Source: Polyangiales bacterium
GTDB taxonomy: Bacteria; Myxococcota_A; Polyangia; Polyangiales; Polyangiaceae
NCBI GenBank assembly: GCA_038231275.1
Contig: JBBRLQ010000034.1
Coordinates: 11,924 to 75,923 of the forward strand
DNA: 64,000 nt
Direction: 5' to 3'
Shown: piece by piece, positions 5,691-35,380 of the stretch
Layout of the letters: each line of letters begins with the position of its first letter
Position numbering within the stretch: the first letter of the stretch is position 1
The notes under the pieces: model-generated
Told to the model about the DNA's origin: nothing
What the model saw: the letters and a program-made list of their open reading frames with translations, nothing else
Database searches by the model: none
Made by a program: the position numbers and the translations under genes

Positions 5691-7843
5691 CCGAACGACG
5701 TCGCGTCGAAGAGTCCCTCCGGGAGAGCGAAGAGCGCTTCCGCCTGCTCGTCGAGAGCGTGCGGGACTACGCGATCTTCATGCTCGATCCGACGGGACGC
5801 ATCGCGACGTGGAACATCGGCGCAGAGCGAATCAAGGGGTACCGCGCGGACGAGATCATCGGCGAGCATCTCTCACGCTTCTACCCGACCGTCGACATCG
5901 AAGCCGGGAAGTGCGAGATGGAGCTCGAGGTCGCCGCGCGCGAAGGACGATTCGAGGACGAGGGATGGCGGCTCCGAAAAGACGGGAGTCACTTCTGGGC
6001 GAACGTGATCCTCACCGCGCTGCGCGACGCGGACGGCAGGCTCGTCGGTTACGCGAAGGTCACCCGAGACCTCACGGAGCGAAAGCGGGCGGAAGAGGAG
6101 CGGCTTCGCCTGGGCATCCTCGCGCGCGAGCGCATCGCCACGCTCACGCACCTCTCCGAAGCGCTCGCCGGCGCGCTCTCGACGGACGAGGTCAGCGCGG
6201 TGGTCGTGGAGGCCGGGACGACCCTCGCGCGCGCGGATGCTTGCCTGCTGTACATGCTCGACCCGCGGTCGCTCGTCCTCGAGCTGTTGGCGGAGCGCGG
6301 GTGCAATCCAAACCTGGTCGACCGCATCCGGCACATCACGCCAGAGTCGGATAATCCCGTCTATTCCATCGGCGTGGGGCGCGTCGACTCCGTCTGGATC
6401 GAGAGCGCCGCGGAGTACGATGCTTTCTTTCCGGCGATGGCGCGGGTCGAGGCCGACGGACCGCGGACGAACGCGTTCTGGTGCGCGTCGCTCAGGGCCG
6501 AGGGGCGCACGATCGGGATGCTCGCGGTCGCCTTCCACGCGCCTCGCGCCTTCGCGTCGGAGGAGCGCGAGTTCGTCGGCACGTTCGCGCGGCAGTGCGC
6601 GCAGGCGCTCGCCCGCGCAGGGCGCCTCGCTGCCGAGCGCGCGGCGGCGAGCATGGCGGAAGAGGCGCGCCGCAGCGCCGACCGCGCGAACCACGCGAAG
6701 GACGAGTTCCTTGCGGTCGTGAGCCACGAGCTGCGGACCCCGCTGAACGCGATCATGGGCTGGGCCAAGATCATGATGTCGCGCGACTTCGACGATCGCC
6801 GTCGTCGCGTCGCCGTCGAGACGATCGAGCGCAACGCCGGGGCCATGGCGCAGCTCATCGAGGATCTCCTCGACATGTCGCGCGTCATCAGCGGAAAGAT
6901 GCGCCTCGAGCTCCAGGTCGTCGACGTCGCGTCGGTCGTGGAGGCGGCGGTCCACTCCATCAAGCCGGCCGCCGATGCGAAGGAGGTCACCGTCGCGTGT
7001 GCGCTCGAAGTGTCGCCGAGGGTCACTGCGGATCCGACCCGCCTCCAGCAGATTGTCTGGAACCTCGTGAGCAACGCGATCAAGTTCACGCCGCGCGCCG
7101 GACGTGTCCACGTGCGCCTCCGCCGCGACAGCGACGAGATCGCGCTCACCGTCGAAGACACGGGAAAGGGAATTTCGCCCGCGTTCTTGCCCAGCGTCTT
7201 CGACGCCTTTCGCCAAGAGGACGCGAGCCCCTCGCGGGCGCGCGGCGGCCTCGGGCTCGGGTTGGCGATCACGCGGCAGCTCGTCGAGCTCCACGGCGGG
7301 CGAATTGAGGCCTTCAGCGAAGGGGAGGGGCAAGGATCCAAGTTCGTCGTCACGTTGCCGCTACCGAGCGGCGCGCAGGCAGCGGAGGCGGCGCCGACCG
7401 CTTTGGCGAAGGATCTGCGCGAGAACCCGTTCGAGCGCCCCGCGCAGCTGCGCGGGCTCCGCGTCATCGTCGTCGAGGACGACGACGATGGGCGCGAGCT
7501 CGTCGCGATGGTCCTCGAGGATTGCGGGTGCCGGGTGACCACCGCCCGGAGCGTCGCAGAGGCGATGACCGCGATCGGCAAAGAGGTTCCCGACGTCCTC
7601 CTCTCCGACATCGCCATGCCTGGCGAGGACGGCTACGATCTCATTCGCCGCGTCCGCGCCTTACCGGCCGACGCCGGTGGATCGATCCCCGCCGGCGCGC
7701 TCACGGCCTTCGCGCGCCCCGAAGACCGGCGAAAGATCCTGAACGCTGGATACTCGATTCACCTCCCGAAGCCCATCGAGCCGGCGGAGTTGGTCGCCGT
7801 CGTCGCCACGTTGAGCCGCTCCGCGTCGCCACGGCAGATTTGA
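5687..7843 (+). CDS. Hybrid sensor kinase (PAS-GAF-HisKA-HATPase-REC)
   Basis: PAS (DYAIFMLD...WNIGAERIKGY), GAF, SHELRTPL, G boxes and a C-terminal receiver (SDIAMP, PKP). GTGA overlap with the upstream gene. Confidence 0.93.
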   Translation: MTERRRVEESLRESEERFRLLVESVRDYAIFMLDPTGRIATWNIGAERIKGYRADEIIGEHLSRFYPTVDIEAGKCEMELEVAAREGRFEDEGWRLRKDGSHFWANVILTALRDADGRLVGYAKVTRDLTERKRAEEERLRLGILARERIATLTHLSEALAGALSTDEVSAVVVEAGTTLARADACLLYMLDPRSLVLELLAERGCNPNLVDRIRHITPESDNPVYSIGVGRVDSVWIESAAEYDAFFPAMARVEADGPRTNAFWCASLRAEGRTIGMLAVAFHAPRAFASEEREFVGTFARQCAQALARAGRLAAERAAASMAEEARRSADRANHAKDEFLAVVSHELRTPLNAIMGWAKIMMSRDFDDRRRRVAVETIERNAGAMAQLIEDLLDMSRVISGKMRLELQVVDVASVVEAAVHSIKPAADAKEVTVACALEVSPRVTADPTRLQQIVWNLVSNAIKFTPRAGRVHVRLRRDSDEIALTVEDTGKGISPAFLPSVFDAFRQEDASPSRARGGLGLGLAITRQLVELHGGRIEAFSEGEGQGSKFVVTLPLPSGAQAAEAAPTALAKDLRENPFERPAQLRGLRVIVVEDDDDGRELVAMVLEDCGCRVTTARSVAEAMTAIGKEVPDVLLSDIAMPGEDGYDLIRRVRALPADAGGSIPAGALTAFARPEDRRKILNAGYSIHLPKPIEPAELVAVVATLSRSASPRQI

Positions 7844-29566: not shown

Positions 29567-30406
29567 TCACCCCGCCACCTCCGTGACGTAGCGTGCGAGC
29601 ATCGTCTTCGCGCCCTCCGCGAACGCGATGGTCAGCTTCGCGTCGGGACCTTCACCCGCCTGTGACACGATCACGCCTTCCCCGAATTTGGGATGAACGA
29701 CTCTCTTCGCGGGCGCCGCGGGCTCGGGCTTCGGCGGCGGCCTGAACACGGGCTTCGGCATGCGCGATGGAGTCGAGCTCTTGGCGGTCGGCGCGGGGGC
29801 GGCGGCCGGAGCTGCGGATGGCGCGGTGGCTGCTGCGATGGCGGCTGCGGTGGCTGGGGCGGCGGCGGGAGCTGCGGCAGGCGCGCCGACTGGGGCGGCG
29901 GCCGGAGCCACGGCGGTCCTGCGCTTCGGCTCGCTTTTCGCGGCGGGTGAGACCGGCACAGCGAGCCCGGCGGCCTCTCGCAGCGCTCGCGCTTTCTTCG
30001 GCCGAACCTCGTCGACGACCTCTCGCAGCGCGGGTACGTCGATTCGACGGAGCTCGTGCTGAACGATCTCCCTTCCCACGAGGTTCATCAGCGTGGGGCG
30101 CGCGGCCGCGTCGTCCACCGCCCAGGAGCGCGCCAGCGCCCATAGATCTTCGGCCGTCGAAGGGGGAACGTAGGCGAGCGCGAACGCGACGATCTCCGCC
30201 GCCTCGGGGAAAAAATTCCACTGCCCGAAGCCCGCCCCAAGGTTCTCGGCGACGAGCTTCGGCAGCTTCGATTGCGCGGCCAGCGTTTGGCCCGCGATCT
30301 GCGCCTCCCCGTACACCGAGCCCTTGTGCGCGTTTGCGACCATCGCCACGAGCTCGTCGCGCGTCATCGCCGAGCCTTCGGCGGGTTCCGACTCCGTGTT
30401 CGCCAT
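29567..30406 (-). CDS. Hypothetical protein with a C-terminal PcrA/UvrD-type Tudor-like domain
   Basis: Helical N-terminal domain, Ala/Pro linker, then RVVHPKFGEGVIV...GEGPDAKLTIAF..G.KT. Confidence 0.7.
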   Translation of the reverse strand: MANTESEPAEGSAMTRDELVAMVANAHKGSVYGEAQIAGQTLAAQSKLPKLVAENLGAGFGQWNFFPEAAEIVAFALAYVPPSTAEDLWALARSWAVDDAAARPTLMNLVGREIVQHELRRIDVPALREVVDEVRPKKARALREAAGLAVPVSPAAKSEPKRRTAVAPAAAPVGAPAAAPAAAPATAAAIAAATAPSAAPAAAPAPTAKSSTPSRMPKPVFRPPPKPEPAAPAKRVVHPKFGEGVIVSQAGEGPDAKLTIAFAEGAKTMLARYVTEVAG

Positions 30407-30494
30407 CGTGTCCAGAGTTCGCTGCGTGCGCAGCGGCGTCAAGAGACACTCCGCCGCGTCGACACCATCGGCGCGACGACATAAGAGAAGCGCC

Positions 30495-31135
30495 ATGGGA
30501 AAATCGGCGCGGTACGACGCGATCATCCTCGGCGCCGGACAGGCAGGGCCCCCTCTCGCCGAGCGCCTCACCGCGAAAGGCCTGACCGTGGCCCTCGTCG
30601 AGCGGAAACGGTTCGGCGGCACCTGCGTCAACACAGGATGCATGCCGACCAAGACGCTCGTCGCGAGCGCCTACGCCGCGCACCTCGCCCGACGCGCCGC
30701 GGAACCCATACCGCCTACAACGACTTCGAGATCGTCGCCGCCAATCTCCTCGACGGCGAATCGCGCCGCGTGAGCGACCGGCTTCTTGGATATGCACTCT
30801 ACATCGATCCGCCCCTCGGCCGCGTCGGCCTCACCGAGCGCGACGCCCTCGCGGCCGGTCACACGATCCGCGTCGGAAAGCGTCCGATGACGCGCGTGGG
30901 TCGCGCGATCGAGAAGGGCGAGACGCAGGGCTTCATGAAGGTGGTCGTGGACGCGGAGAGCCAGCGCATCCTCGGCGCCGCGATCCTCGGCGTCGGCGGA
31001 GACGAGGCCATCCACGGAATCCTCGACGTCATGAACGCGAAGCTGCCGTACACGACGCTGCAGCGCGCGGTGCCGATTCATCCGACGGTCTCGGAGCTGA
31101 TCCCCACGCTGCTGGGAGAGTTGGCCGCCCCCTGA
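30495..31135 (+). pseudogene. Internally deleted and frameshifted pyridine nucleotide-disulfide oxidoreductase (MerA/RclA-like)
   Basis: The N-terminus (GAGQAG, GGTCVNTGCMPTK) joins at ~30704, out of frame, to the C-terminal part (THTAYND...IHPTVSE). The central NAD(P)H-binding region is absent. Confidence 0.88.
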
Positions 31136-31176
31136 GGTTTGCCCTTCGATCCGAGGTGAAGGCGCCGAGTCCGCGC

Positions 31177-31204
31177 TTGACAGAGCACGGCGAGCTTCTA
31201 GGCT
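31177..31204 (+). promoter_or_regulatory. Sigma-70-type promoter
   Basis: TTGACA-N16-TAGGCT. Confidence 0.6.
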
Positions 31205-31209
31205 AGACA

Positions 31210-31355
31210 AACCGCCGACCGTTTCGGTGGACGCTTCGTCCGGCCTCACCCACACAGGGGCCACACTCGAAGCCAAGCGGGGCGCAGTCTCGCCAGACGG
31301 TATCGGATTCTCGGTTCTCGGCGCGTGTGTGGGACGACGCCAGATCCAGGAGAAG
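31210..31355 (+). ncRNA. Candidate structured 5' leader RNA
   Basis: Hairpin CCGCCGA/TCGGTGG, long-range pair CCCACACA/TGTGTGGG, hairpin GTCT/AGAC, then AGGAG SD. Confidence 0.4.
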
Positions 31356-31359
31356 CCCG

Positions 31360-32121
31360 ATGACGAACAAGCGCAAGGCGCGCATCCGCGAGCTGGCGAA
31401 CGATCTCGGTATCAACCGGCGCGCCGCAGCGAGTCGCCTCGACGCAGGCCGATCGCGCACACCAACGCCGGCAGTGCAGGCCCTGACGACCGTCGCGATC
31501 GGGGCGTATTCGGGCCCTCGGGGCGATGCCGCGCCGCGCGTGACGCTCCAAGATCTCTGGGCGTGCGCGTCGGCGGGCGTCTTGACGTGCGACGGCGACT
31601 CTTGTGGCTGGGCGTTGGTGGAGCCGCCTCCCCGCGGCGCCCCCGCCGAGCTCGTCGAGCGGTGCCGCAGCGCGCCGTACCTCGAGGCGATGGACAAGAA
31701 CAACTGGGCGACCGAGGCGCGGTATGCGCTCAGGCAGATCGGACGCGACGTCGCGACCGCGTACGCCGAGAGCGTCCGCAAGGGCACGCCGACTCTGTGC
31801 TCGAGCGCGGCACCGACGCCCCCGACGGTTCCGGCCCCCGGCGAGCGCCTCCAAGCCGTCGAGCAGTTCCGATCCGATCCGGGCTGGCGCAGCATCCTCT
31901 TCACGATGGACCACCCCATCTTCTTCCAGTACCGCATCGATGCGGGCGACCGAGCGTTCACTGCGTCGGCCAGGGGCAGTCGGCGCGAGAAGGACGGCGG
32001 CACCACGGACCTCACGCTGATCCTCCGCGGGCGTCTCGACGACACGGGCGAGCTCTGGACCTCGGCGATCGAAGAGACGTGGACCGCGCGGCCTGTCGCC
32101 TCGCGCGGAGCGTGGTCGTGA
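31360..32121 (+). CDS. Hypothetical protein with a basic HTH-like N-terminus
   Basis: AGGAG SD; MTNKRKARIRELANDLGINRRAAASRL; stop overlaps the next start (TGATG). Confidence 0.65.
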   Translation: MTNKRKARIRELANDLGINRRAAASRLDAGRSRTPTPAVQALTTVAIGAYSGPRGDAAPRVTLQDLWACASAGVLTCDGDSCGWALVEPPPRGAPAELVERCRSAPYLEAMDKNNWATEARYALRQIGRDVATAYAESVRKGTPTLCSSAAPTPPTVPAPGERLQAVEQFRSDPGWRSILFTMDHPIFFQYRIDAGDRAFTASARGSRREKDGGTTDLTLILRGRLDDTGELWTSAIEETWTARPVASRGAWS

Positions 32122-33773
32122 TGCGGCCGCACCATCTGCTCGCGCTCGCCGCGCTCACGATGTCATGCGCCGCCAGCCCGGCGCCATTGGCGACGCGACC
32201 GCAGCGCTTCGTCGACCCACCGATCCCCGAGCTCGAGTTCACGGACTCCGCCCGCCGCGCCAAGATCGAGGCGACCTTCCCCGAGCTCGACGCCTACTTC
32301 GCGCGCGAGCAGACCAAGGCGAAGGTTCCGGGCTTGGCGGTCGGCGTCGTCGTCGACGGCGACCTCGCGTGGTCGAGAGGCTACGGCTTGCGCGACGTGG
32401 AGGCGCGCGCGCCCATCGACGCCGACAGCGTTCTCCGCATCGGCTCCATGGGCAAGACGCTCGCCGCCACCGCGATCATGCAGCTTCGCGACGCCGGCAA
32501 GCTCGCGCTCGGGGATCCCGCGGAGCGCTACCTCCCGGAGCTGTCCGACGCCGTGTACATGCGCCGCGACGCCCCGCGCATGACGATCTGGAATCTCCTC
32601 ACCCACTCGTCGGGGCTCCCCGAGTGGGGGCCGTACAGCTTCACTGACGAGGGGCACGAGATCACCGAGGCCGAGGTGCGGCGTACCTACCCGAACCAGG
32701 CGCTCGTACTGACCACCGGCGCCGGCAACAACTACTCGAACGCGGGGATCATCGCCGCGGGGCTCATCGCCGCCAGCGTCTCGGGGATGCCGTATCGGAA
32801 GTACGTGACGGAACGGATCTTCCGTCCGCTGGGGATGACGGCGTCGGTGTGGAACGAGGAGGACGTCCCGCGCGAGCACTTCGCGAAGGGGTATGCCGGA
32901 CCCGAGGGCGCGCGCACGAGCCCGAAGAACTGGCGCATCGGCGCGGCGGTCCCGGCCGGTGGCGCCTACTCGTCGGTGCGCGATCTCGCGCGGTTCGTGG
33001 CGATGCAGCTGTCCGCATGGGAAAGGCGCGATCGACCGGATGACGGCCCGGTTCGTCGCGCGTCGCTGCGCGAGATGCACCTTCCGAGCTTCACCGGCCC
33101 GGGCCGCGTTCGGACACCGGATCCGGATTCGCCGTGGCTCGCAGAGCTGCGCGTGCATTCGCAGGGCCTGGGGTGGGAGATTTTCAGCAACTGCGACTTC
33201 GAAAAGGTCGTCATGAAGGGCGGCGGCGAAGAGGACGGCTACGCCGGCTTCATGGTGTTCGTGCCCGGAACGCAAGTGGGGCTCGTGGCGCTATGGAACG
33301 TGGGCGACCTCGGCCTGTTCGACACGCTCGAGCCGGCCCTCCGCATCCTCGGGCACAAAGGCGGGCTCGAGGGGCGAAAGGTGAAGCCGGCGCCGGCGCT
33401 CCGGGAGGCGAAGGCGCGGCTCGATCGCTTGCTGGCGAAGTGGGACGCGGCCGACGCGGAGCGCCTCTTCGCGCCGCTCGTGTTCGACGCGATTTCGAAC
33501 ACGCCGTCGCGGGCGGACTGGGCGAAGATGATTACGAGCCACGGCGCGTGCCACGCGCGCGACGACTTGGAAGTAGGCAACGGCTTCGCGAATGGGCACT
33601 GGACGGCGGACTGCGAGCGCGGGCGAATCGAGCTCGAGGTCGACGTCGCGCAGTGGTCGCCGCTCGTCGTGCGGGAGTATCGATTCAACGAGCTTCGCGA
33701 AACGCCGAGCGACTCTGGCCCGCGGGAGCGGTGTCCACGAAGACCGGCGACGGCGAACGACGAGCGAAGATGA
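32121..33773 (+). CDS. Serine hydrolase, beta-lactamase class C/AmpH-like family, lipoprotein
   Basis: Lipobox TMSC; IGSMGK (SxxK), LLTHSSGL and YSN. Confidence 0.9.
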   Translation: MRPHHLLALAALTMSCAASPAPLATRPQRFVDPPIPELEFTDSARRAKIEATFPELDAYFAREQTKAKVPGLAVGVVVDGDLAWSRGYGLRDVEARAPIDADSVLRIGSMGKTLAATAIMQLRDAGKLALGDPAERYLPELSDAVYMRRDAPRMTIWNLLTHSSGLPEWGPYSFTDEGHEITEAEVRRTYPNQALVLTTGAGNNYSNAGIIAAGLIAASVSGMPYRKYVTERIFRPLGMTASVWNEEDVPREHFAKGYAGPEGARTSPKNWRIGAAVPAGGAYSSVRDLARFVAMQLSAWERRDRPDDGPVRRASLREMHLPSFTGPGRVRTPDPDSPWLAELRVHSQGLGWEIFSNCDFEKVVMKGGGEEDGYAGFMVFVPGTQVGLVALWNVGDLGLFDTLEPALRILGHKGGLEGRKVKPAPALREAKARLDRLLAKWDAADAERLFAPLVFDAISNTPSRADWAKMITSHGACHARDDLEVGNGFANGHWTADCERGRIELEVDVAQWSPLVVREYRFNELRETPSDSGPRERCPRRPATANDERR

Positions 33774-33871: not shown

Positions 33872-35236
33872 TCAACGTAACGCGCTGCCGGCGCGCTCGA
33901 GATCGACGCGCAGCCGCGTGCGGCCGACGAGTAGCTCGTCGTCGTGGACGAGGGCTTGGCGGCCCTTGATGCGAACGAAGACGCCGCTCCGTGCGCCGAG
34001 ATCCGTGAGCACGTACGACTCCGCCTGCTCCTCGATGACGCAATGGTACTTGGCGACGACGGGGTCACCGCGCAGCACCAGATCGTTCGCGAACTCGATG
34101 CCCGCGCCGATCTGGAGCAAGCTCCCGCGCGCGAGCGCGCATCCTCCGACGCCGCCGCCCTCGAAAATCTGCAAGACGCGAAACGCCGACGGGCCGCGCG
34201 GCGACGCCAAGTAGTAGGTCGGCCCCGCGCCGGGTCCATCGTCGACGTCGCTGTTGGCCTCGATGCGCAAGAGCTGATCGCCGCATACGAACTCGTCGCC
34301 GATTGCGATCGCCACGCGCGTCCGGATCCGGATGAAGACGCCGTTGCCGCCCTCGAGATCATCGAGAAAGAGCTTCCCGCCCTCCCACGTGAGCGCCGCC
34401 TCTTGCGGGTGGCAGAAGCGCTCTCCTGCGAGCGACACCGCGCCCATCGAGCCGATGACGATCGACTCGCCCGGGGGATCGTAGCGCTCGGGGCCTCCCG
34501 AGAGACTTCGCAGGACGTGCAGCGTCACGTGGACCTTCGTGGCTGCCGCGGGGGTCTTCGCGGGAGGAGGCGCAGCGGCAGGCGCGGGCTTCGCGCCGCC
34601 GACCTGACCGACGTCGACGACCGGCGCGCGCTCCAGCACCTCCATGCCGCCCGCGCGCTTGCCTTCGAGGATGGGATCGAACTGCCCGTCGCGGAGCATC
34701 CCGACCATCTCCATGTGCTGGCCCTTCATCAAGGCCTTCACGTGCATTACGACGTCGGGCGAGCTCACGGCATCGGTGTAGCTGCGCTTGTGGCTCTTGA
34801 TGACGCGCCCGCCGTCGGCGAACACGTGCGTGATGACGTGCGGGTTTCCCAAGCCCGAGTCCTCGGTCTGCACGTGGTACTGCTTGCCCTTGTAGCGGAC
34901 GTTGTTGTTGAACCCGACCTGCGCGCGCTGAAAGACGGGCCGCCCTTGCTTCTCGAGCTTCGCGAGCTCCGTCGCGGTGAAGCGGCCGATGGCCCGCTCG
35001 AGCTCGCCATGATCGCCGGTGAGGCCCTCCATCCGCTCGAACGCTGCCTTGGCGACGGCGCTCTTCGCGTCGATGCGAAGCGCCTCTGCAAGCAGCGCTT
35101 GGCCGTCCGCGTCGTTGGGCCCCGACGCCGCCCACGCGGCGAGGATGAGCACGGCGTCGCCGTCGTTCCCCTTCTCGCGCAGCACCTTGGCGACGCGTTT
35201 GGCGAGCGCGCGTGGATCGGAGGCGGCAGACGTCAT
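33872..35236 (-). CDS. Protein with a myxobacterial 'HVQTEDSG' domain and two FHA-like domains
   Basis: GFNNNVRYKGKQYHVQTEDSG; DLEGGNGVFIRI and TDLGARSGVFVRI. Start approximate. Confidence 0.75.
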   Translation of the reverse strand: MTSAASDPRALAKRVAKVLREKGNDGDAVLILAAWAASGPNDADGQALLAEALRIDAKSAVAKAAFERMEGLTGDHGELERAIGRFTATELAKLEKQGRPVFQRAQVGFNNNVRYKGKQYHVQTEDSGLGNPHVITHVFADGGRVIKSHKRSYTDAVSSPDVVMHVKALMKGQHMEMVGMLRDGQFDPILEGKRAGGMEVLERAPVVDVGQVGGAKPAPAAAPPPAKTPAAATKVHVTLHVLRSLSGGPERYDPPGESIVIGSMGAVSLAGERFCHPQEAALTWEGGKLFLDDLEGGNGVFIRIRTRVAIAIGDEFVCGDQLLRIEANSDVDDGPGAGPTYYLASPRGPSAFRVLQIFEGGGVGGCALARGSLLQIGAGIEFANDLVLRGDPVVAKYHCVIEEQAESYVLTDLGARSGVFVRIKGRQALVHDDELLVGRTRLRVDLERAGSALR

Positions 35237-35380
35237 ACCTCCGATCATCGATGCGCCCGCGTCAGGAGGCAATCGGCAACTGCGACGAGGCCTCCCGGAT
35301 CACCACCTCCCGCTCGACGCGGTGAAGATGTCGACGACGCCGGAGCGCGTTCTCCGCCTCGTGCTCCGGCAACGGTCCCG

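Follow-up and report, generated by a model that had tools for sequence, protein, structure and literature searches.

What lies between the promoter and the start codon of gene A, in the genome of a Polyangiales bacterium (assembly GCA_038231275.1, family Polyangiaceae)? The question arises from a stretch of 64,000 nucleotides (nt) of contig JBBRLQ010000034.1 (positions 11,924 to 75,923 of the forward strand), which we call the window; coordinates given without a contig name refer to it. The product of gene A starts with a basic peptide that resembles a helix-turn-helix (HTH) motif, and the gene is followed by gene B, which codes for a serine hydrolase. A first-pass annotation, based on this single copy, proposed that the leader of gene A is a structured RNA, and that leader and peptide form a portable autoregulatory cassette with a variable cargo. 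The limitation to one copy has been overcome, since four DNA copies of the leader were found. Their comparison shows selection for an RNA fold, on the sense strand, in which the ribosome-binding site is buried, as well as a joint transfer of this leader and the N-terminal domain. We consider it rather probable that the promoter, the leader that masks the Shine-Dalgarno (SD) sequence and the codons of the N-terminal domain form a cis-regulatory module.

The comparison includes the leader of the window (genome G000, 9.28 Mb, about 70% G+C, contig C34), that of L001 (genome G236), that of the metagenome contig L003 and that of genome G480 (contigs L062/L068). A collection of 5.8 billion proteins contains 31 gene A homologues, 30 besides gene A itself, of which 26 are 63-82% identical to the query over 95-100% of its length and have the same architecture; the remainder consists of two short fragments (P0028 and P0030), one protein whose C-terminal part is frameshifted (P0029) and one that is over-called and frameshifted (P0031). 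The motif MT(N/D)KR(K/R) is present in all 19 homologues that were aligned, at residue 1 in 18 of them and after a 76-residue over-called extension in P0031. Full-length orthologues are encoded by two of the 401 genomes of the order, or two of the 383 genomes of the family, namely G000 and G236, which belong to one genus. A search for related loci in genome and metagenome contigs returned only L001 and L003, plus one weak unrelated match (L002), and BLAST with the leader gave full matches only in G000 and G236 among the 401 genomes of the order. Matches of 23-37 nt in 12 other genomes of the order (E 1e-4 to 0.01) were taken for chance.

The fourth copy was found with a covariance model (R1) built from the first three leaders, which score 187-194 bits. 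Over 151 relatives, R1 gave one further full-length match (57.7 bits, E 1e-10, L062:1501-1683), in G480, a genome from a different genus whose protein is attributed to a Byssovorax sp. assembly. Leader and peptide are each present as a single copy in G000, G236 and G480. The peptide pattern CCGATGACNAAYAARMGNAAR, which is strict and misses the MS.. and ..D.. variants, has three matches in the 383 family genomes. The peptide profile A9 has none in 270 further genomes of the phylum, nor did tblastn of the G480 peptide match anything in plasmids and phages. Viral contigs gave no match to the peptide pattern and five to a leader pattern, none of which was confirmed by R1. Among sequencing runs, an identical piece of 179 nt was seen in one (X2), another (X1) may come from the source sample, and a third (X3) contained nothing; no new variant of the leader appeared, and none of the RNA runs was found to contain the stretch.

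The alignment of the leaders from the window, L001 and L003 starts abruptly at GCTTGACAG. In the 200 nt upstream of this point the identity is only 35-52%, and the DNA located 5' of the -35 element does not align. These three sequences have 83-88% identity in the core of the leader and 100% in the first 18 nt of gene A, compared to only 56-63% at the four-fold degenerate sites of the two genes. The TTGACA-N16-TAGGCT promoter predicted in the first-pass annotation is indeed present, and it is kept in all four loci as GCTTGAC(A/G)-N16/17-TAG(G/C)(C/G/T)T, with a spacer whose sequence varies (in G480 it reads TTGACG-N17-TAGGTT); a stricter consensus promoter scan did not call TTGACA-N16-TAGGCT. 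The position of this promoter suggests that the transcript starts near 31210. In the leader itself, insertions and deletions of 1 nt are confined to loops and junctions. Such single-base changes break every reading frame, which indicates that the leader is non-coding and rules out a leader peptide. The AGGAG at 31348-31352 and the ATG at 31360 were confirmed, and GGAG is kept 5-8 nt before the ATG in the four loci.

Regarding the fold of this leader, a first structure was obtained with RNAalifold on three sequences; it consists of a hairpin P1, an element P2 made of an outer and an inner helix, a hairpin P3 and a long hairpin P4. The four leaders were aligned with MAFFT without regard to structure (A7), these helices and a loop-loop pairing were mapped on the alignment, and the pairs were counted. 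Out of 180 cells (45 pairs in four sequences), 93.9% contain standard pairs, compared to 37-52% when the partners are slid by 1-3 columns. None of 500 shuffles matches the observed pairing, compensation or covariation score. Both partners are changed in six pairs, of which P1 contains three, and the outer helix of P2, P3 and the loop-loop (kissing) helix one each. A conserved and covarying structure among homologues, which the first-pass annotation had asked for, is what the alignment contains. When folded by itself, the leader of G480 forms P1 to P4 in the same order.

The 5' hairpin that had been noticed in the window alone is P1: its seven pairs are 100% paired in the four sequences, and the three compensatory changes occur in G480. 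The outer helix of P2 is 91.7% paired, with one change from U-A to C-G. The inner helix is 87.5% paired in fixed columns, and a one-base slip in register keeps this helix in L003 and G480. All six pairs of P3 are 100% paired in the four sequences; two of them are G-U pairs, and one G-U is swapped to U-G. The unpaired sequence RACGG, between P3 and P4, is conserved.

The kissing helix joins the loop of P2 to the apical loop of P4. Its seven pairs are 100% paired in the four sequences, and an A-U pair is replaced by C-G in G480 (CCCACAC/GUGUGGG becomes CCCCCAC/GUGGGGG). The calculated energy of the kissing duplex is -11.1 kcal/mol for the window and -13.4 kcal/mol for G480, and mixed partners give -9.8 and -7.1 kcal/mol. 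In separate minimum-energy folds, GUGUGGG in the window and GUGGGGG in G480 both form the exact 7-nt hairpin loop of P4. The long-range helix first drawn as CCCACACA/TGTGTGGG (31249-56/31326-33) therefore survives in seven of its eight pairs, and the eighth pair is seen in one sequence out of four. Conservation does not extend to the competing TCGTCC/GGACGA pair or to the small hairpin at 31287-98: both are present in the window, yet together with the eighth pair they are only 65.9% paired, with no compensatory change, and 91 of 500 shuffles are as good.

The part of the structure that is most directly related to translation is P4. The five pairs at its base (AUCGG/CCGAU) are invariant in the four sequences, and CCGAU includes the AU of the start codon. 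Above it, UUCUC (UUCUCUC in G480) pairs with the SD region in the fold of each sequence taken separately, although the registers differ. For the bases of the SD sequence, the probability of being unpaired is 0.00-0.04 in the window, and 0.00-0.17 in the case of G480; the leaders of L001 and L003 alternate between two folds, both of which mask the SD sequence. Pairing of the SD sequence and the start codon in a conserved helix is what characterizes the SD-sequestering leaders of translational cis-repressors. Since P4 masks the SD sequence and the AUG, and since the leader has no terminator-like site on the + strand, the simplest reading is that control is exerted on the initiation of translation.

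The energies of folding are less informative than the comparison. The window leader alone folds with -67.8 kcal/mol (z -1.16, 24 of 200 shuffles being as good; a second estimate gives z -1.63), and the long-range helix and the competing pair are both absent from this single-sequence fold. For the consensus fold compared to column shuffles, z is -2.15 with the MAFFT alignment (13/300) and -3.62 with a model-fitted alignment (0/300), the latter alignment being biased towards structure. The structural support comes from comparison, not from fold energy. The fold signal is specific to one strand: the sense strand gives -38.0 kcal/mol (z -2.19), the antisense strand -25.4 kcal/mol (z +0.42). We ruled out an antisense RNA on the basis that the antisense strand has no fold signal. 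Last, a cmscan search against Rfam 15, with permissive filters and E values up to 10, returned no match to the leader in window positions 30500-32500, L062 and L003, as expected for the undescribed motif that the first-pass annotation suspected. On the evidence of these alignments, the leader is a conserved structured RNA, on the sense strand, outside Rfam.

The same strand asymmetry bears on the main alternative, an explanation at the level of DNA, in which the peptide binds DNA through an ordinary HTH and represses the promoter of its own gene, the leader being a collection of operators (the P1 palindrome, the inverted CCCACAC/GTGTGGG) whose half-sites change together. P1 does sit where operators are often found, just after the start site. 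A set of operators would not be expected to fold on the sense strand only, or to tolerate what would be mismatches in DNA: the four leaders contain 4-8 G-U pairs each, a G-U pair of P3 is swapped to U-G, and in L003 a C-G pair of P1 is changed to U-G. It is also important to note that five different helices are kept, rather than a single repeated site, and that one of them is the pairing between the SD and anti-SD sequences. We consider that control at the DNA level is improbable as the explanation of the leader, but it could be that the domain binds both DNA and RNA.

Nor is the structure easily explained as a by-product of the mobility of the segment. According to this idea, the segment is kept as a shared 5' end for the exchange of cargo, or has spread recently, and its structure is incidental. 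It is true that the flanking genes of the window and L001, which come from two species of one genus, differ on both sides, and that the G480 copy has the appearance of an insertion: it starts directly after a truncated MmeI_N fragment (L062 829-1476, PF20464, 1.5e-8), in a stretch of 62-65% G+C within surroundings of about 70% (L068 8400-9600), and the G+C content at third codon positions (GC3) of its open reading frame (ORF) is 0.76. On the contrary, the compensatory changes and the strand asymmetry show that selection acts on the pairing, the loci are old (four-fold sites are near saturation while the leader is still 83-88% identical), and the peptide is kept through synonymous changes. A mere recombination handle appears to us very improbable.

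The G480 copy also shows that the leader is not tied to gene A. It is followed by an ORF that begins with MTNKRKKHTRALEAKLNVSYQAAHNL and has no relation to gene A over its other 280 residues; in a BLASTP comparison of the products, only residues 1-25 align. This ORF has the periodicity of a coding sequence (G+C by codon position 0.71/0.43/0.76) and no Pfam domain. No other similar protein was found in the 5.8-billion-protein collection; a later comparison of bodies grouped it with P0051. The codons of the shared peptide differ by synonymous changes in G480 (ACG/ACC, AAG/AAA, CGC/AGG), which indicates that the peptide is kept as a protein and not as RNA.

How widespread is this peptide? An exhaustive search of 1.84 billion cluster representatives (E <= 0.001), made with a profile (A5) of residues 1-42, gave 37 matches, 35 of them N-terminal: 33 start at residue 1, one at residue 3 (a GTG start) and one at residue 28 (an over-called start). 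The remaining two, P0033 and P0037, are internal matches in repeat proteins and were discarded as unrelated. A word-indexed search with the peptide profile had yielded no more than the family of gene A and the protein of G480, and the exhaustive search revealed the remainder. After residue 36, the bodies of 33 of these proteins can be divided into 24 groups, between which BLASTP detects no similarity at 1e-3. Some bodies have a Pfam domain (HNH_5, DUF6042 in two proteins, YozE_SAM_like), but most have none. The 20 peptide-bearing proteins that were looked up are metagenomic or unnamed, in clusters of one or two sequences. A search of PHROGs with the 35 proteins returned two PHROGs of unknown function. 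In the largest group of cargo (5 of the 33 proteins, among which P0039, P0040 and P0044), the body is rich in cysteine and resembles a zinc ribbon (C..CG.W.WCG ... C.CGH.Y.V.F ... RRCMDCG).

The portable cassette with variable cargo that was proposed from the window is borne out by these results: leader and peptide precede two unrelated proteins, and the peptide alone is found ahead of at least 24 bodies. Judging from the DNA ahead of these two proteins, leader and N-terminal peptide behave as a portable unit. The coupling to the serine hydrolase, which does exist, belongs to one family of cargo (window and L001) and not to the module.

The diversity of the cargo is also relevant to the idea, mentioned in the first-pass annotation, that the leader is a sensor in its own right, either a small-ligand riboswitch or an RNA thermometer that opens P4, and that the peptide is merely a neighbouring domain. 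Kissing loops and conserved unpaired bases, such as the RACGG of this leader, are common in the aptamers of riboswitches, and imperfect helices that mask the SD sequence are typical of RNA thermometers. Guanidine-II riboswitches control translation through kissing hairpins (PMC10351892). But the 24 groups of bodies are unrelated (HNH_5, DUF6042, YozE_SAM_like or no domain) and suggest no common pathway or metabolite, which makes a metabolite riboswitch unlikely; the predicted fold has no junction of several helices around a pocket; and a sensor RNA would not explain why the leader is strictly linked to one peptide. We give little credence to a sensor that works independently of the peptide.

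Regarding the peptide itself, its consensus (from A9) is MTNKRKKRxRxLAAKLGISYQAAxNxL, and AlphaFold2, used with 31 sequences, predicts residues 1-30 with a predicted local distance difference test score (pLDDT) of 92-98, as a helix (3-16), a turn (17-19) and a second helix (20-35). These two predicted helices, with a tight turn at a conserved glycine, have the arrangement of an HTH. The closest relatives in terms of sequence are DNA-binding motifs, and these are the observations that favor the DNA-level control discussed above. HTH_10 matches 14 of 31 peptides with E values from 0.00017 to 0.1, but below threshold (that of the window has 16.1 bits, the gathering cut-off being 23.1). PADLOC mad1 matches six of 31, with a best E of 5.9e-5, below its cut-off and over positions 1-30 of the 60 of the profile. 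The best match to a solved structure is the HTH of TyrR (E 0.12). The fold search with the peptide model was uninformative (Z <= 2.6). The MADS preprint classes MAD1 among widespread regulators. The match to mad1 being partial, we do not assign gene A to MAD1, nor was gene B, a PF00144 gene, taken for a mad gene (gene B and the flanks are outside the PADLOC scan). PADLOC, applied to gene A and 34 other peptide-bearing proteins, detected no family besides mad1, with one borderline match. The peptide aligns with the HTH core of these families (positions 21-45 of 53 in HTH_10, 1-30 of 60 in mad1); unlike them, it has only two conserved helices, which form the very N-terminus of the proteins and precede a linker that varies and bodies that are unrelated.

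We propose the following mechanism for a module that would consist of a sigma-70-type promoter, a leader RNA of about 150 nt and the first 30 or so codons, which encode a basic two-helix (HTH-like) domain. In the folded leader, P4 would pair AUCGG.UUCUC with the SD sequence and the start codon and thereby keep ribosomes off, and the kissing of the P4 loop with the P2 loop should lock this closed form. The N-terminal domain of the product may then act in trans: it would bind the leader in its folded form, perhaps at the kissing complex in the way that the two-helix protein Rop does on the ColE1 RNAs, and would so cap the synthesis of the protein whatever the cargo. In the window, the cargo would be a protein with a pilin fold, translationally coupled to the serine hydrolase. 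Because leader and domain were transferred together, the domain is the best candidate for a reader of this RNA. That the product's own N-terminal domain binds the leader is the most likely identity of the trans-acting factor, but we put it forward only tentatively. A fully self-limiting cassette, in which the two-helix domain, on leaving the ribosome, binds the kissing complex of its own mRNA and stops further initiation, is a more speculative version, which we regard as doubtful.

Several observations weigh against this interpretation. The folds of single sequences are no better than those of shuffled sequences (z -0.3 to -1.6). The six compensatory changes all stem from one diverged sequence, G480, and amount to one contrast between lineages. 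The minimum-energy fold of L003 is different, the consensus fold being 1.0 kcal/mol above it, and the middle of P4 adopts different registers among copies (81% paired in fixed columns). The start of the transcript is a prediction from the conservation of the promoter sequence. The nearest sequence relatives of the peptide are DNA-binding HTH motifs, which fit DNA binding at least equally well. Last, the DNA of the leader is seen in four copies, in front of only two types of cargo, and the other 33 peptide-bearing clusters give only weak hints, in over-called ORFs: tblastn of P0063 and P0068 against the leaders gave the short match GLPHTEPPSGGE / GLPHTGPQHEAE, whose E value of 0.009 in a database of four sequences is too weak to count.

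Table 1. Positions in the window of the promoter, of the predicted elements of the leader and of the two genes.
Feature	Position	Strand	Details
Sigma-70-type promoter	31177-31204	+	-35 TTGACA (31177-31182), 16-nt spacer, -10 TAGGCT (31199-31204)
5' leader RNA, about 150 nt, non-coding	31210-31359	+	Conservation, R1 matches
P1, 5'-terminal hairpin	31212-31230	+	CCGCCGA / UCGGUGG, loop CCGUU
P2	31233-31273	+	Outer GCUUCG/CGAAGC (31233-38/31268-73), inner GGCCUC/GGGGCC (31242-47/31257-62), loop ACCCACACA
Kissing-loop element 1, CCCACAC	31249-31255	+	In the P2 loop; pairs with 31327-31333
P3 hairpin	31277-31293	+	GCGGGGC / GUCUCGC
P4, long imperfect hairpin	31302-31361	+	AUCGG (31302-06) / CCGAU (31357-61); UUCUC (31308-12) / GAGAA (31350-54); apical stem 31320-26/31334-41
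Kissing-loop element 2, GUGUGGG	31327-31333	+	7-nt apical loop of P4; partner 31249-55
Shine-Dalgarno AGGAG	31348-31352	+	GGAG kept in 4/4 loci
Gene A	31360-32121	+	253 residues: N-terminal peptide, variable linker, Cys-containing segment, pilin-like domain (residues ~105-245)
N-terminal basic two-helix peptide, codons 1-30	31360-31449	+	MTNKRKARIRELANDLGINRRAAASRLDAG
Gene B	32121-33773	+	550 residues, beta-lactamase-family serine hydrolase, lipoprotein-like signal peptide, start overlapping the gene A stop

The frame of gene A (Table 1) is supported by the periodicity of GC3, and its product has no Pfam or NCBIfam match. When the model of gene A (pLDDT 66.8) is compared to known structures with VIA-align, rows 1-10 and row 12 among the 13 chains with Z >= 5, thus 11 of the 13, are pilins or pseudopilins, aligned over residues ~105-245 with middling scores (Z 5.1-6.2). 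Matches in the ESM Atlas (0.83-0.87) are leads only, and Foldseek with this model returned nothing at E 0.001 or better. The sequence has no class III signal peptide and no hydrophobic N-terminal helix. According to the model, the body of gene A may resemble a pilin fold. Paralogues of this body domain are present in 115 of the 401 genomes of the order (this tally includes the unpublished genomes G388, G396 and G123, which enter into none of the other results), in open frames of about 120 to 990 residues among the matches listed. One relative, at L009 352-1980, is a BlaR1-type M56 peptidase (PF05569, 6e-28) whose C-terminal domain is 41% identical to residues 92-242 of gene A. We do not conclude that gene A belongs to a BlaR1/BlaI-type regulation, as gene A has no Pfam domain and the M56 fusion is found at L009 and not at this locus.

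The coupling of genes A and B is visible in the sequence TGATG (32119-32123), in which the TGA of gene A overlaps the ATG of gene B; the same junction is present in L001. Gene B matches PF00144 with an E value of 6e-61 (206.9 bits, the cut-off being 27), but its scores are far under the NCBIfam equivalog cut-offs for class C beta-lactamase (107.5 versus 415 bits) and AmpH (96.5 versus 266), so that it is, as far as these profiles tell, a generic serine hydrolase and no named resistance enzyme. In L001, at 5777-5930, the ORF for the signal peptide of the gene B homologue stops after 20 codons and the hydrolase domain resumes in another frame; this stretch is about 115 nt shorter than in the window, and corresponds either to a broken gene or to an assembly error.

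Upstream of the module, 224 nt separate the ATG of gene A from the stop (31135) of a broken oxidoreductase gene. This remnant of a pyridine nucleotide-disulphide oxidoreductase gene (30324-31135, + strand) is in two frames, and matches positions 1-57 only of the Pyr_redox_2 profile, followed by a complete dimerisation domain, the middle ~230 residues being missing. Its 5' part overlaps an ORF of 361 residues on the - strand (29567-30652), in the same third-codon phase; the middle of this ORF is rich in Ala and Pro, and its C-terminus matches the PcrA/UvrD tudor domain (PF21196, 5e-8). Downstream of gene B, a convergent gene (33872-35272, - strand) codes for 466 residues with a C-terminal FHA domain (PF00498, 1e-10), and has no counterpart beside the L001 copy. 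Regarding the other copies, a gene for an AAA_21/AAA_15 (OLD/AbiEii-like) ATPase is located upstream of the metagenomic copy (L003 664-1707), and another gene, which matches ABC_tran and AAA_21, is found at a distance of 4 kb from that of G480 (L068 13688-15175).

Which known systems does this module resemble? T4 RegA and threonyl-tRNA synthetase are autogenous translational repressors. The same is true of ribosomal protein S15, which controls rpsO (PMC8470358): there too a structured leader contains the ribosome-binding site, and binding by the product is what we propose here. In systems of the S15 type, the RNA mimics another RNA target of the protein and the whole protein is dedicated, whereas in the present case the candidate is an N-terminal domain of 30 residues common to unrelated proteins. 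By analogy, the predicted two-helix hairpin next to a 7-bp kissing pair may recall Rop (Rom), a two-helix hairpin protein that binds loop-loop RNAs. Rop differs in that it acts in trans on two separate RNAs (RNA I and RNA II of ColE1), as a free-standing dimer, and controls replication. A search of all sequences of the Protein Data Bank with profile A9, up to E 10, returned 15 matches, none of which is Rop.

The N protein of phage lambda recognises the boxB RNA hairpin, in a leader transcript, by means of a short basic N-terminal peptide. It does so with a single arginine-rich helix, and it acts on the termination of transcription, while the + strand of the present leader has no terminator-like site. 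In the repZ leader of IncI-alpha and IncB plasmids, the pairing of a hairpin loop with a distant part of the leader, near the ribosome-binding site, forms a pseudoknot that decides translation. There, translation is switched on by the pairing, which an antisense RNA prevents; in the present leader, the antisense strand has no fold signal. As for Rop, an NMR (nuclear magnetic resonance) and gel-shift study reports a TAR-aptamer-ROP complex and also cites the RNAI-RNAII-Rop complex (PMC2602780). Full-text searches with the peptide motif and with DUF6042 returned no paper, and searches on related concepts, at the level of abstracts, returned no description of such a module.

Leaders that mask the SD sequence and proteins that regulate themselves are familiar; for a leader RNA that travels with a short N-terminal domain across unrelated genes, these searches gave no precedent. 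As far as the sequences tell, the leader RNA is real and undescribed, its kissing loop has phylogenetic support, and the HTH-like N-terminal domain to which it is linked is portable. If peptide and RNA are partners, they would form a compact matched protein-RNA pair, and a natural plug-in regulator. Any protein, perhaps a risky one such as a nuclease, would then gain a tight control of its dosage in cis by fusion behind the leader and 30 codons, and a principle of RNA recognition similar to that of Rop would have found a second use, as a modular tag that a protein carries and that a particular RNA matches. RNA biology would gain a new motif and synthetic biology a ready-made tag for autoregulation, and the module offers a way to approach metagenomic proteins of 35 clusters that are otherwise uncharacterised.

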